A stretch of 20,038 nucleotides of DNA from an uncultured Thermotogae bacterium (GTDB taxonomy: Bacteria; Bipolaricaulota; Bipolaricaulia; UBA7950; UBA9294). Location: NCBI GenBank assembly GCA_964554715.1, contig CAZKPU010000022.1, positions 1-20,038 of the forward strand, written 5' to 3'. Positions within the stretch are counted from its first letter, which is position 1; every line of letters starts with the position of its first letter. Positions 1,207-5,072 of the stretch are shown here, piece by piece. The notes beneath the pieces are model-generated. The model was not told the origin of the DNA. It saw nothing but the letters and a program-made list of their open reading frames with translations, and made no database searches. A program made the translations under genes and the position numbers.

Positions 1207-1250
1207 CAAAACACAAGCGACCGCGTTGCCTCTCCTGGCAACCCGGCCAC
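1207..1250 (-). terminator. Intrinsic terminator/antiterminator switch forming the expression platform of riboswitch copy 1.
   Basis: Minus-strand sequence: GUGGCCGGGUUGCC-AGGAGA-GGCAACGCGGUCGC. The stem is about 14 bp (one mismatch, two G.U pairs) and is immediately followed by UUGUGUUUUG (rc of 1207-1216). The 5' arm is the conserved GGUGGCCGGGUUGCC segment of the aptamer. Confidence 0.5.
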
Positions 1251-1305
1251 CATCATAGGTCCGTAGCTTTGCGTCCCTACCTTCCGATAGGTTTGCCTTT
1301 TTCAG
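1207..1305 (-). ncRNA. c-di-GMP-I (GEMM) riboswitch, copy 1, in the 5' leader of the RHH-MshEN regulator gene. Its expression platform is an intrinsic terminator.
   Basis: Minus-strand reading: aGGCAAACC-UAUCG-GAA-GGUAGGG-ACGCAAAGC-UACGGACCU...GGUGGCCGGGUUGCC. Hairpin CCUAUC-GGAA-GGUAGG (GNRA loop; G.U wobble compensating relative to copy 2) is at 1276-1291. GGCAAACC is the rc of 1290-1297. The aptamer 3' strand overlaps the 5' arm of a terminator hairpin. Confidence 0.75.
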
Positions 1306-1326
1306 GTCCCGCTTCTAAGTGCCACC

Positions 1327-1355
1327 ATCATATACGAAACACTTAGAATCGTCAA
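1327..1355 (-). promoter_or_regulatory. Sigma70-like promoter driving riboswitch copy 1 and the RHH-MshEN gene.
   Basis: On the minus strand: TTGACG (rc of 1350-1355), a 17-bp spacer, then TATGAT (rc of 1327-1332). The predicted TSS at ~1320 is ~22 nt upstream of the aptamer GGCAAACC. Confidence 0.55.
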
Positions 1356-1461
1356 GTCTTTCATCATCGCTTGAGATTCTCTATTGTTAGCGGCGACAAG
1401 AGAGACGATCCCAACGATCTTTGCGGCATTCAGGTCGCGCCTCTATACTGAGCACCTGAAG

Positions 1462-4026
1462 ATGAACGACACAAGCCCGATGATGGAGCAGTACTGGAGA
1501 CTGAAATCGCAGCATCCTGGCGCGATCCTGTTCTTTCACCTCGGCGACTTCTACGAGACGTTCTTCGACGACGCAAAGACGGTCGCTTCGGAGCTGGACG
1601 TTGTGCTGACGGCACGAAACGGCAATCCCATGGCTGGTGTCCCTGTGCGAAGGGGGGAAGCCTACATCAACCGCCTGTTGAAGAAGGGCTACAAGGTCGC
1701 GATCTGTCAACAGGTAGAGAACCCGAAGAACGCGAAGGGACTGGTGAAACGCAGGATTGTCCGGGTTGCCACACCGGGAACGGTTCTTGACGAGGACGTG
1801 CTGGACGCCGGGACCAACAACTACTTGGTCGGGATCTTCTCGCAGGAAAAGCACGCACTGGCGGTTGCCGACCTCTCAACCGGCGAGTTTCGATGCACGA
1901 CAGGTCTTGACGAATCGGCGCTGGATGGCGAGCTGCATCGGCTGTCGCCGTCCGAGATCCTCGTTCCGGCTTCCTGGAGCCCAGAGAAGCTGCGGAAGCT
2001 CGACGATCTTCACGCCTCGACGAGCACCATTGAAGTAGATAAGTACGAAGCCCGAGAGATGCCGGCGCCCACAGAGGAGTTCCCGCGTGCTGCGCTTCGG
2101 GCGGCGGCGGCCGTGTACAACTACATCGTTGAGACGCAGAAGGAAGCAGCGCAACATCTCCGTCCGCTTCAGCTCTACTCCGTTGCCGACCACATGGATC
2201 TCGACCCATTCACGGTGCGCAGCATGGAGCTGATCCATCCGCTCCGGGACGGCGGCAAGAGGGGAACGATTCTCGGGGTCGTTGATCAAACCTGTACGAG
2301 CATGGGGCGTCGGCTGCTCCGGCGCCGCCTTCTTTCCCCGATGGTCGATCTACGAAAGATCACCCGGCGTCTGGATGCAGTGGAAGCGCTCGTGGGCGCG
2401 GAAATCCCGCGGCAGCAGCTGCGGGAGAGCATGAAGTCGGTTCGGGATCTGGAACGGTTGACGGGAAGGTTGGGATCCCATCGGATCCGGCCGATGGATG
2501 TCCTCCTCATCCAACGAACCCTCGAGCGAGTCCCCGAGATTGCCGGCCGGATTCCGGGCATTGACGCATGTGAAAAGACAGATGGGAAGACCACTCATTC
2601 GCGTGATGGGGAAGGTCGAGCATCGGAGAACCTCGCGGACGTGCACCGACGGTTGACGAGTTCGGCTGTCGGCGATCTCAGCGCTCTGCTGAAGAACATG
2701 CTGGTCGATCAGCCGCCGCAACACATCGGCGAGGGAGGGGTCGTCCGTGATGGCCATGATTCGACGCTCGACGGGCTACGAGCGGCGATTGCCAACACCA
2801 AAGAGAAGATCGCTGCGGTTGAAGGACGTGAGCGCGAGAAGACGGGGATCGGAACACTCAAAGTCGGCTACAACAAGGTGTTTGGCTACTACCTCGAGGT
2901 GACGCGCACGCATCTGGAGAAGGTGCCTCCGCGCTACCATCGTCGGCAAACCCTGTCCAACGCGGAACGCTTCACCATCGACGAACTCCATGGATTGGAG
3001 CAGGACATCGAGGAAAAGCAGGCGGCGGCGGTCGCACGTGAGAAGGAAATCTACGATGCGGCGGTGAACGAACTCACGCGGTCGATCCCCGAGCTCCAAA
3101 GCATCAGCGATGCACTCGCCGAGCTTGATGTTGCCTTGTCGCTGGCGCAGATCGCAGCTCGAGACGGCTACTCGAGGCCGACCTTCAACGATCGGGGCGA
3201 GATTCGGATTCGAGATGGACGACATCCTGTAGTGGAGCAAGTCGAGGAGTTCGTCCCTAACGATCTTGAGATGGACCGGAAGACCTCGCTTGTTGTTCTG
3301 ACCGGTCCCAACATGGCTGGCAAGTCCGTCTTCTTGAGACAGGCTGCAGTCATCTGTCTGCTGGCACAAGTCGGGTCGTTCGTACCGGCGCGGGAGGCGT
3401 CCGTACCGATCGTCGATCAGGTGTTTGCCCGCGTCGGCGCAAGCGACGCTCTTGCCGAGGGAATCAGCACGTTCATGATGGAGATGCTCGAAGTATCAAC
3501 GATCCTCGAGCGCGCTACATCGCACAGCTTGATCATTCTCGACGAGATGGGACGTGGGACAAGCACGTTTGACGGGATGGCGATCGCATGGGCGATTGCT
3601 CATGAGCTAGCCTCGCGGACCCAGGCGAAGACGCTCTTTGCCACGCACTATCACGAACTCACACAGCTCGCCGATGAACTCCCTTCGGTGAAGAACCTGC
3701 ACGTGACCGTGAAGGAACTCGGGGACCATGTGGTTTTCCTGCATCACGTCGAAGAAGGGATTGCCGAAGGAAGCTACGGAGTTCACGTCGCCCGGCTTGC
3801 GGGACTCCCCGTCAGGGTCACCGAAGAGGCGGACCGCATTCTCGGTTCCTTAAGGGATGAGGAGCCGCTCACTCGGTTCCAGCAGAACCGGACGCCGAAG
3901 CAGCCTCTTCCTTTGTTCGGCGCCGAAGACCACCCGGTTGTCAAAGAGATCCGCAGCATCGACACGGATCGTCTCACTCCGCTGGAAGCGCTGAACCTCC
4001 TTGTGCGGTGGAAGGAAACCCTGTAG
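1462..4026 (+). CDS. mutS: DNA mismatch repair protein MutS (MutS1).
   Basis: N-terminus MNDTSPMMEQYWRLKSQHPGAILFFHLGDFYETFFDDA aligns with E. coli MutS HTPMMQQYLRLKAQHP..FYRMGDFYELFYDDA. Walker A GPNMAGKS and ILDEMGRGTSTFDG are present. The C-terminal LEALNLLVRWKE is MutS-like. The ORF opens at 1384 (TTG), but homology places the start at ATG 1462. Confidence 0.95.
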   Translation: MNDTSPMMEQYWRLKSQHPGAILFFHLGDFYETFFDDAKTVASELDVVLTARNGNPMAGVPVRRGEAYINRLLKKGYKVAICQQVENPKNAKGLVKRRIVRVATPGTVLDEDVLDAGTNNYLVGIFSQEKHALAVADLSTGEFRCTTGLDESALDGELHRLSPSEILVPASWSPEKLRKLDDLHASTSTIEVDKYEAREMPAPTEEFPRAALRAAAAVYNYIVETQKEAAQHLRPLQLYSVADHMDLDPFTVRSMELIHPLRDGGKRGTILGVVDQTCTSMGRRLLRRRLLSPMVDLRKITRRLDAVEALVGAEIPRQQLRESMKSVRDLERLTGRLGSHRIRPMDVLLIQRTLERVPEIAGRIPGIDACEKTDGKTTHSRDGEGRASENLADVHRRLTSSAVGDLSALLKNMLVDQPPQHIGEGGVVRDGHDSTLDGLRAAIANTKEKIAAVEGREREKTGIGTLKVGYNKVFGYYLEVTRTHLEKVPPRYHRRQTLSNAERFTIDELHGLEQDIEEKQAAAVAREKEIYDAAVNELTRSIPELQSISDALAELDVALSLAQIAARDGYSRPTFNDRGEIRIRDGRHPVVEQVEEFVPNDLEMDRKTSLVVLTGPNMAGKSVFLRQAAVICLLAQVGSFVPAREASVPIVDQVFARVGASDALAEGISTFMMEMLEVSTILERATSHSLIILDEMGRGTSTFDGMAIAWAIAHELASRTQAKTLFATHYHELTQLADELPSVKNLHVTVKELGDHVVFLHHVEEGIAEGSYGVHVARLAGLPVRVTEEADRILGSLRDEEPLTRFQQNRTPKQPLPLFGAEDHPVVKEIRSIDTDRLTPLEALNLLVRWKETL

Positions 4027-4031
4027 GCGTC

Positions 4032-5072
4032 ATGAGTCAGCAACAAGCTTCGCAACAACAGAACGAGCCCTCGATTCAGCCGGCTGACGGTGCCGGGCAC
4101 ACTCCCGTGCTTGTCGATGCGGTCGTCCGCTACATGAACCCGCATCCCGGGGGGATCTACGTCGATGGAACCATCGGATTGGGGGGGCACTCTCGGGCGC
4201 TTCTGCGCGCGGAGCGGGATATCCGGATTCTTGGGATCGATCGCGACCAGGCTGCACTGGACTACGCCGCCAGGTGTCTTGAGGAGTGGAGGGATCGAGT
4301 CTCGTTCCATCACGAACGGTTCTCCGAGTTGTTGAACGTCCTGCAGGCGGAAAGCGTTCCATCGGTCGACGGTGTCCTGCTGGATGTGGGGGTTTCCTCG
4401 ATGCAGCTCGATACCGCAGAGCGCGGGTTCAGCTTCCGGCGCAATGGCCCTCTTGACATGAGAATGAACGAGCAAGACGAGGCAACGGCGGCGGAACTCA
4501 TCTGTTCCGCGAGTGAAGCAGAGCTTGCGCGTATCTTCCGCGATTTCGGCGAGGAACGGTTTGCCGCGAGAATCGCCCGTCACGTAGTCCGGGTTCGGCA
4601 AGAGAGAGCGATCGAATCGACCGCGGCGCTGGCGGAAACGATCAGCGATGCCGTCCCGAAACGGTTCCACGTTCCCGGGTTCCACCCGGCGACACGCTGT
4701 TTTCAAGCGCTTCGGATCGCCGTAAACGACGAGCTGTCGCAGCTGTCGGCGGGGCTCGAAGCCGCCTTCAACGCGCTCCATCCGGGCGGCGTCCTCGTGG
4801 TGATCTCGTTTCACTCGCTGGAGGATCGGCTTGTGAAGCAGTTCTTGCGTCACAAGGAGGCTTCATGCATCTGTCCGCCGGAGCTTCCTGTGTGCATGTG
4901 CAGCAAGCAGCAAGAGATGAAGCAGCTAACCCGCCGTCCGGTTGTGGCGGATGCTGCCGAGAAGGAGCGCAATCCAAGAGCTCGCAGCGCGAAGCTCCGA
5001 GCTGGCATCAAGCTGGCGGTTACCAACGATCCAAACGGAACCGACATGTGTCATCCTCCGGTGTGTCCGTAG
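4032..5072 (+). CDS. rsmH: 16S rRNA (cytosine1402-N4)-methyltransferase RsmH (MraW).
   Basis: HTPVLVDAVVRYMNPHPGGIYVDGTIGLGGHSRALL matches the RsmH N-terminal SAM-binding region (HxxVLLxE...GxYxDxTxGxGGHS). Typical RsmH length. The start could be ATG 4032 or GTG 4008, 6 nt after or overlapping the mutS stop (4024-4026). Confidence 0.9.
   Translation: MSQQQASQQQNEPSIQPADGAGHTPVLVDAVVRYMNPHPGGIYVDGTIGLGGHSRALLRAERDIRILGIDRDQAALDYAARCLEEWRDRVSFHHERFSELLNVLQAESVPSVDGVLLDVGVSSMQLDTAERGFSFRRNGPLDMRMNEQDEATAAELICSASEAELARIFRDFGEERFAARIARHVVRVRQERAIESTAALAETISDAVPKRFHVPGFHPATRCFQALRIAVNDELSQLSAGLEAAFNALHPGGVLVVISFHSLEDRLVKQFLRHKEASCICPPELPVCMCSKQQEMKQLTRRPVVADAAEKERNPRARSAKLRAGIKLAVTNDPNGTDMCHPPVCP

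Follow-up and report, generated by a model that had tools for sequence, protein, structure and literature searches.

A canonical class I c-di-GMP riboswitch and a second aptamer flank a gene for a small MshEN-type protein in uncultivated Bipolaricaulota

The question raised by this locus is what the leader at positions 1355-1207 of a contig from an uncultured bacterium of the phylum Bipolaricaulota (NCBI GenBank assembly GCA_964554715.1, contig CAZKPU010000022.1) senses, in which direction it switches and what it controls. The window is the whole 20,038-nt stretch of DNA that was analysed; all positions refer to it, and the features described here lie on the minus strand unless stated otherwise. 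An earlier note on this DNA had read the leader as a GEMM (c-di-GMP-I) riboswitch with its own promoter and terminator ahead of a small regulator gene, and all the elements that it listed were found in the sequence where it had placed them. It is very likely that 1355-1207 comprises a promoter and a leader with a canonical class I riboswitch for cyclic di-GMP (c-di-GMP), acting as a transcriptional ON switch, and that a second, putatively translational switch lies downstream. The features of the leader and of the gene that follows it are these:

1355-1350, minus strand: -35 hexamer TTGACG (from the sequence; a TTGACA-like hexamer stands at the equivalent site in relatives)
1332-1327, minus strand: -10 hexamer TATGAT, after a 17-nt spacer, ending 20 nt ahead of aptamer 1
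1306-1233, minus strand: aptamer 1, GEMM-I / c-di-GMP-I fold, 74 nt (Rfam cmscan and covariation)
1251-1216, minus strand: terminator hairpin, 14 pairs with one G-G mismatch (minimum free energy fold)
1215-1207, minus strand: U-run UGUGUUUUG, directly 3' of the terminator hairpin
1186-863, minus strand: small gene, 107 aa, with ATG at 1186-1184 and stop at 863

Aptamer 1 was matched at full length, well beyond chance, when the whole window was scanned with Rfam (68.1 bits, E 1.7e-14, against a gathering score of 59), and it scored 84.1 bits with a covariance model made for this analysis. The string within 1306-1233 is GGCAAACC-UAUCG-GAA-GGUAGGG-ACGCAAAGC-UACGGACCU, and the core reads GGCAAACC-UAUCG-GAA-GGUAGGG-ACGCAAAGC-UACGGACC. 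In the cmscan alignment 20 of the 21 model pairs are formed in aptamer 1, and all 21 are formed in a second copy, aptamer 2, that lies past the small gene. The first hairpin is capped by a GNRA tetraloop in both copies (GGAA in aptamer 1, GCGA in aptamer 2), and the second hairpin is short, with a loop of 6-7 nt. The Vibrio cholerae aptamer Vc2 contacts its ligand via G20, A47 and C92, and Vc1 via G12, A39 and C104, with the contact A 27 nt past the contact G and the C of the interhelical pair 24 nt past it (PMC4744006). The equivalents of G20, A47 and C92 in aptamer 1 are G 1297, A 1270 and C 1238; model positions 10, 37, 34 and 75 are G, A, C and C, position 75 being the C92 equivalent, and the G-to-A distance is 27 nt, as in both Vc2 and Vc1. 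The G20 and C92 equivalents, on which the earlier note had staked its class assignment, are thus both present, together with A at the A47 position. The covariance-model match, and a fold and contacts that are kept in relatives, place the element in the GEMM / c-di-GMP-I class as the note had proposed, and aptamer 1 is a genuine new member of this known class, fairly ordinary on its own.

For the 107-aa protein 377 homologues were found, with about 70-79% identity; this tightly conserved family carries no Pfam annotation, and its members, where named, come from metagenome-assembled genomes of Candidatus Bipolaricaulota or 'Thermotogota'. Loci from reference genomes (five, from a single-protein scan) and from metagenomes (80, from an alignment-based scan) were compared, and a covariance model built from 11 aptamers was run on all fetched loci. 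This returned 151 aptamer matches, 134 of them distinct, and every match has the same orientation as the small gene. An aptamer lies upstream of the gene in 67 of 82 testable copies, about 45-70 nt ahead of the start codon, and downstream in 60 of 83, at most about 100 nt past the stop; among orthologues above 65% identity the two-aptamer layout is near-universal. Standard pairing holds in 95.3% of cells over the 134 distinct aptamers, in an alignment that was fitted to the model and so favours structure, and both partners vary in 18 of the 21 pairs. No observed pairing measure was reached in any of 500 column shuffles, and pairing fell to 24-49% when the 3' partners were displaced by 1-3 columns as slide controls. 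Given the effect size and the slide controls, chance or relatedness alone is an unlikely explanation. A GNRA loop caps the first hairpin in 122 of the 134 homologues, the C of the interhelical pair is kept in 129, and a candidate partner G in an internal loop of the 3' strand is present in 118; the predicted pairing of the two would be tertiary. By comparison of these loci, the order riboswitch, small gene, riboswitch, adhesin is conserved across the uncultivated phylum Bipolaricaulota.

Some relatives elaborate on this layout. Back-to-back aptamers occupy the leader in L030:1986-2281, L031:4716-4949, L034:4692-4947 and L036:2284-2537, and two aptamers follow the small gene in others (L017:1586-1921, L019, L040, L046), such doubling giving three or four aptamers per operon. 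One locus, L008, carries two full copies of the cassette, 2.5 kb apart.

The earlier note had proposed that aptamer and terminator share a strand, and folding bears this out. The terminator hairpin consists of a 5' arm GGUGGCCGGGUUGCC (1251-1237), a loop AGGAGA (1236-1231) and a 3' arm GGCAACGCGGUCGCU (1230-1216), and its 5' arm is the P2/P1 3' strand of aptamer 1. Because the entire 5' arm of the hairpin is the 3' strand of the aptamer, the two structures are mutually exclusive. The unconstrained minimum free energy fold of the leader (-40.9 kcal/mol) forms the long hairpin in place of the second helix of the aptamer, and a fold with the aptamer pairs enforced (-27.6 kcal/mol) excludes the terminator hairpin. 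Of 62 distinct leaders taken from other loci, 58 use the aptamer 3' strand for a hairpin followed by a U-run (at least 5 U per 8-nt window at the position past the hairpin), and the arms of the terminator differ in sequence and co-vary between lineages. A simple terminator scan did not call the 1251-1216 hairpin, which was found by folding; the miss is attributed to the internal G-G mismatch. A ligand-stabilised aptamer would exclude the terminator, and this architecture is conserved in relatives, in keeping with the ON polarity that had been predicted. The platform of aptamer 1 is accordingly best described as a putative anti-termination ON switch, with a polarity in vivo that would follow from its anatomy.

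The promoter, too, is present as described, and its conservation in the leaders of relatives goes beyond a consensus match alone. TTGACG-17-TATGAT is the sole sigma-70-like site found by a promoter scan in the first 2.5 kb. A TTGACA-(16-18)-TATAnT pair scoring 10-12 out of 12 occurs in 57 of 60 leaders, and in 48 of these 57 exactly 20 nt separate the end of the -10 hexamer from the aptamer, whereas the promoter score of control stretches 600 nt upstream never exceeded 8. The 20 nt between promoter and aptamer (1307-1326 and its equivalents in L002-L080) do not vary in length and include a GCA(C/A)TTAG element that is conserved, and the promoter spacer is itself partly conserved, for example as CGAAyAyA. 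The element and the conserved spacer could be an operator for the small protein or a part of the RNA leader.

The single switch of the earlier note stands as aptamer 1, but the operon has a second aptamer at 795-721, directly ahead of a gene for a surface protein. The features of this downstream region are as follows:

831-813, minus strand: orphan 5' aptamer fragment GCUGAGAAAGGCAAACUGC, 19 nt, just upstream of aptamer 2
795-721, minus strand: aptamer 2, same class, with a GCGA tetraloop and G, A and C at the contact positions (cmscan 70.6 bits, E 3.3e-15)
750-741, minus strand: GGCCUCCCUG, 5' strand and loop of the second hairpin of aptamer 2, pairing with the Shine-Dalgarno sequence in the ligand-free fold
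704-698, minus strand: Shine-Dalgarno sequence GGGGAGG of the surface-protein gene (sequence and fold)
693-1, minus strand: 5' part of the surface-protein gene, with ATG at 693-691, running off the window

Aptamer 2 begins 68 nt past the stop of the small gene and ends 27 nt ahead of the start codon of the surface-protein gene; it is not followed by a terminator and adjoins the Shine-Dalgarno sequence. In the ligand-free fold of the window, GCCUCCCU (within 750-741) pairs with GGGGAGG (704-698), and five of the five Shine-Dalgarno bases in the window pair inside aptamer 2, the masking strand being GCCUCCC. Formation of aptamer 2 would release the Shine-Dalgarno sequence and would thus act as a translational ON switch, if the masking holds. 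The downstream aptamers of relatives likewise have no U-run after them and are followed within about 15-25 nt by a strong Shine-Dalgarno sequence (commonly AAGGAGG) and a start codon. Ahead of these aptamers promoter scores are only 0-8 in 48 of 52 cases, there is usually no U-run, and the stop codon lies a median of 54 nt away. Since most downstream aptamers have neither a promoter nor a U-run ahead of them and lie this close to the stop codon, aptamer 2 and the surface-protein gene are likely to be cotranscribed with the small gene.

The surface protein encoded in the window combines a hydrophobic segment at its N-terminus with a cadherin-like domain (Cadherin_4, E 1.3e-11). The remainder of its gene was not recovered, the sole exact-match contig (ENA ERZ23495300, 8.3 kb) stopping just past the small gene. 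The downstream genes of relatives are of adhesin-like type as well; they encode proteins with DUF11, Big_1, Ig, HYR, VWA, LTD and CHU_C domains, often more than 600-1,600 aa long, and a few encode small, secreted proteins with no Pfam match. The gene at 1-693 and the downstream genes of L011, L014 and L071 share an uncharacterised N-terminal module with the pattern (I/A)SHW(V/I/T)LG(L/V)P ... TG(V/I)xG(I/V/M)K(F/Y) ... AxVKAG, for which Pfam searches returned no match.

In an alignment, the orphan fragment GCUGAGAAAGGCAAACUGC matches without a difference the 19 nt with which the downstream aptamer of L002 begins (L002:4371-4389). The make-up of this region suggests that the downstream aptamer may serve as a recombination junction at which surface-protein genes are swapped. 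L002 is a close relative (96% identical), and the window, L002 and L007 represent near-identical strains with three different genes past the small gene. The downstream aptamer of L007 (L007:5359-5433) has a degenerate 3' end. Many contigs break at the downstream-aptamer junction.

The gene between the two aptamers had been described as that of a small regulator, and one half of its product can now be assigned with confidence. Residues ~41-102 correspond to a GSPII/MshEN module, separate from an N-terminal part of ~1-43. The MshEN motif is a 24-residue pattern, RLGxx(L/V/I)(L/V/I)xxG(L/V/I)(L/V/I)xxxxLxxxLxxQ (PMC5013675), and the module was defined by two such motifs in tandem forming four helices. 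In the first motif of the small protein, R46-Q69 (RLGEILLDLGAVTHADLAKGLTLQ), all specified positions fit except A56, which is allowed by the relaxed motif; the second, L77-Q100, keeps LG, LL, a hydrophobic position, L and Q, with Leu for Arg and no central Gly. Across 31 family members the key MshEN residues show little or no variation. Searched against solved structures, the family profile matched PilF (E 5.8e-12), MshE (E 1.4e-3) and also PilB, and it aligns without gaps to PilF residues 299-360. GSPII-C of PilF spans residues 304-476 and binds c-di-GMP at ~0.5 uM, and Leu likewise opens the second motif of GSPII-B, with 6 nM the tightest binder known (PMC11731258); the domain boundaries given there identify the 299-360 match as GSPII-C. 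An AlphaFold (AF2) model of the small protein, with a predicted local distance difference test (pLDDT) score of 81.5, superposes in Foldseek on c-di-GMP-bound PilF GSPII-B and MshEN (8pdk, 5htl) with a root-mean-square deviation of 1.1-1.5 A over 56-59 residues. Pfam gave no T2SSE_N match in the small protein or its family. The C-terminal half is clearly a GSPII/MshEN module and, judged from motif and model, very probably binds c-di-GMP.

The N-terminal half, by comparison, can be described only tentatively, as a putative ribbon-helix-helix DNA-binding head. A sub-cut-off match to RHH_1 (E 0.02) is seen in the small protein, and such matches occur in 3 of the 31 family members; the AF2 model shows an extended N-terminus followed by helices at 9-25 and 29-43; in Foldseek, CopG, Arc and CdbA are matched only weakly (E >1, probability 0.3-0.8); and one source annotation labels a family member as a CopG/Arc/MetJ regulator. 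The description as a small regulator is thus borne out in part, the C-terminal module being clear and the DNA-binding head provisional. Literature searches returned no description of a fusion of ribbon-helix-helix and MshEN domains, nor of this operon in Bipolaricaulota or Acetothermia.

The family label of the aptamers bears directly on what they sense. The predicted covariance-model match was significant, but the top model was RF03167 (c-di-GMP-I-GGC) and not RF01051 as expected, and RF03167 is the best Rfam model for both window aptamers and for most homologues. On that score the aptamers might belong to the GGC class and sense a ligand other than c-di-GMP, a reading that is nevertheless quite improbable. 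The Rfam scan reports the best-scoring member of clan CL00126 at each site; behind every RF03167 match stood a same-clan match above its own gathering score that had been suppressed by clan competition, and homologous operon positions where RF03167 falls below 59 bits are assigned to RF01051 with 36-60 bits (cut-off 35). The RF03167 consensus at the three contact positions is G/G/C, with an upper-case G at position 37, and 'GGC' presumably denotes these G20/G47/C92 bases. Position 37, the first unpaired base past the closing G-C of the first hairpin, is the sole conserved ligand-pocket site at which the window departs from RF03167: the model has G, and both window copies have A. The A47 equivalent is A in 133 of the 134 distinct homologues and G in none, and G/A/C stands at the three contact positions in 125. 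Filing under RF03167 was rejected and the aptamers are filed under the parent class, because they lack the variant's G at the A47 equivalent, which leaves a canonical G/A/C pocket, and because homologous copies are assigned to RF01051. The case illustrates how a 'variant' label from Rfam can arise as an artefact of scoring, so that a new ligand should be proposed only once the contact bases have been inspected. A G20-to-A change switches GEMM-I aptamers to 3',3'-cyclic GMP-AMP (cGAMP) in Geobacter, and sensing of 3',3'-cGAMP, as by the GEMM-Ib variants of that genus, would be compatible with a fold identical in type and with the A found at the G20 position in 3 of 134 homologues elsewhere. With G at this position in both window copies and in 131 of the 134 homologues, that ligand is extremely improbable here, and the ligand of aptamer 1 is most likely c-di-GMP. 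The carriers of A at the G20 position are L020:5384-5459, L023:1-96 and L031:4863-4949; in L023 the A-for-G change is the sole difference from its twins L006 and L022, and natural variation or a sequencing error are both possible.

The direction of switching admits a further alternative: ligand binding might lower expression, as in an OFF switch, or the hairpin might serve a role other than termination, such as processing or stability, so that transcription is not gated. The polarity is deduced from the architecture, the U-run UGUGUUUUG is interrupted and the simple scan called no terminator, all of which would fit such a role. It is set against a 5' arm that is wholly aptamer strand, so that a ligand-stabilised aptamer excludes the hairpin, against the retention of hairpin and U-run in 58 of 62 leaders despite changing arm sequences, and against an arrangement that is the classic ON architecture; an OFF or non-terminating role is thus highly improbable. 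Several points nonetheless weigh against a c-di-GMP-responsive ON switch followed by a translational switch. The fold gaps between the free and aptamer-enforced states are large, at 13 kcal/mol for aptamer 1 and 20 kcal/mol for aptamer 2, and the decision is therefore either co-transcriptional and kinetic or draws on tertiary and ligand energy outside the model. Ligand kinetics in the c-di-GMP-I class are slow, which would suit a co-transcriptional decision. The Shine-Dalgarno sequence is fully paired in just 12 of 60 downstream-type copies, by a crude minimum free energy test whose filter passed some upstream copies. The top Rfam model is that of the GGC variant, whose ligand, to our knowledge, is not established; the ligand and the expression response are predictions from sequence for the whole clade; the ribbon-helix-helix assignment of the N-terminus of the small protein is weak; and the promoter and terminator rules of Bipolaricaulota are assumed to be those of model bacteria.

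With c-di-GMP as the probable ligand and anti-termination as the probable output, the operon can be read as a sequence of decisions, of which the first, anti-termination by aptamer 1, is well supported and the later ones are suggested by anatomy and conservation. Transcription would start a few bases past the -10 hexamer, and the 74-nt aptamer would be made first. With c-di-GMP bound, GGUGGCCGGGUUGCC would be locked in helices P2 and P1, no terminator hairpin could form and the polymerase would read into the 107-aa gene; without ligand, GGUGGCCGGGUUGCC would pair with GGCAACGCGGUCGCU, and the hairpin and U-run would stop transcription. The read-through mRNA would be translated into the small receptor-regulator, and the transcript would probably run on through aptamer 2 (795-721). 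There, GCCUCCC would mask the Shine-Dalgarno sequence of the adhesin gene in the unliganded state, and ligand binding would expose it. Adhesin output would in this way need c-di-GMP twice at the RNA level. The small protein would provide a third reading of the signal at the protein level, with the conserved promoter region as a natural candidate target, giving up to three levels of c-di-GMP reading before commitment to the adhesin. That the whole forms a phylum-wide, three-layer cassette, composed of a riboswitch, a ribbon-helix-helix-MshEN transcription factor, a translational riboswitch and an exchangeable adhesin, with the aptamer as the swap junction, is proposed tentatively, as a possibility that deserves serious consideration.

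The operon is divergent from mutS (1384-4026, plus strand), which is followed by rsmH (4008-5072, plus strand). The neighbourhood on the mutS side recurs in L001, the locus that the comparison covered, where a gene with PBP_dimer and Transpeptidase domains, encoding a penicillin-binding protein, lies two genes past rsmH.

Thousands of c-di-GMP-I aptamers are known, and the riboswitch alone adds little. We know of no cultured representatives of Bipolaricaulota, and the operon offers a directly readable c-di-GMP output pathway in this phylum, with the aptamer as a marker of its adhesin regulon. RNA and protein sensors of one second messenger are arranged in series, with affinities and kinetics that are expected to differ, which makes the operon a natural test case for layered riboswitch and protein receptors. 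No MshEN-type transcription factor turned up in our literature searches; the 107-aa protein would be the first, provided that it binds DNA as well as c-di-GMP.

Compared with Vc2 and Vc1 of RF01051, the aptamers have the same three-helix junction fold, the same GNRA-capped first hairpin and AAA/ACGCAAAGC core, the same G20/A47/C92 contacts and the same distances from G to A (27 nt) and from G to C44 (24 nt), and an association with surface and adhesion genes is common to both. They differ from Vc2 and Vc1 in the short second hairpin (median 11 nt beyond the conserved stem), in a G, not an A, ahead of the C92 equivalent, in a higher score with the GGC-variant model than with the parent model, and in their host, an uncultivated member of Bipolaricaulota. 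With RF03167 they share the compact architecture and the highest covariance-model score (68-71 bits); unlike RF03167, they have A at the A47 equivalent and hence the ligand pocket of the parent class.

The small protein resembles MshE of V. cholerae and two domains of Thermus thermophilus PilF (GSPII-B and GSPII-C) in carrying RLGxxLLxxGhhxxxxLxxxLxxQ and a second, Leu-started copy, and its motif spacing is that of PilF GSPII-C. Unlike in MshE and PilF, the ~55-residue four-helix module stands alone in a small protein, joined to a probable ribbon-helix-helix head and not to a secretion ATPase or glycosyltransferase, and the second motif, unlike in MshEN domains, has another residue in place of Gly at its position 10. 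A further small protein of DNA-binding type that is also a c-di-GMP receptor is CdbA of Myxococcus xanthus; it gives a weak fold match to the N-terminus, but it is without an MshEN motif and riboswitch control of it is not reported (PMC7156744).

The closest parallel for the operon as a whole is provided by tandem c-di-GMP-I riboswitches, of which 347 doublets and 12 triplets have been reported, among them the Bc1/Bc2 tandem upstream of a collagen-adhesion gene in Bacillus thuringiensis (PMC9481103, PMC11218506). As in the present operon, several aptamers for the same ligand control one adhesin-type output in these systems, with an expected sharper response. Unlike tandem systems, the operon has a conserved protein-coding gene between its two switches, and the switches use different platforms, a terminator first and then a Shine-Dalgarno-proximal one. 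The coding gene between the switches, the two platforms and the type of product are what is unusual about this locus, and they make the surroundings of the riboswitch more interesting than the riboswitch itself.

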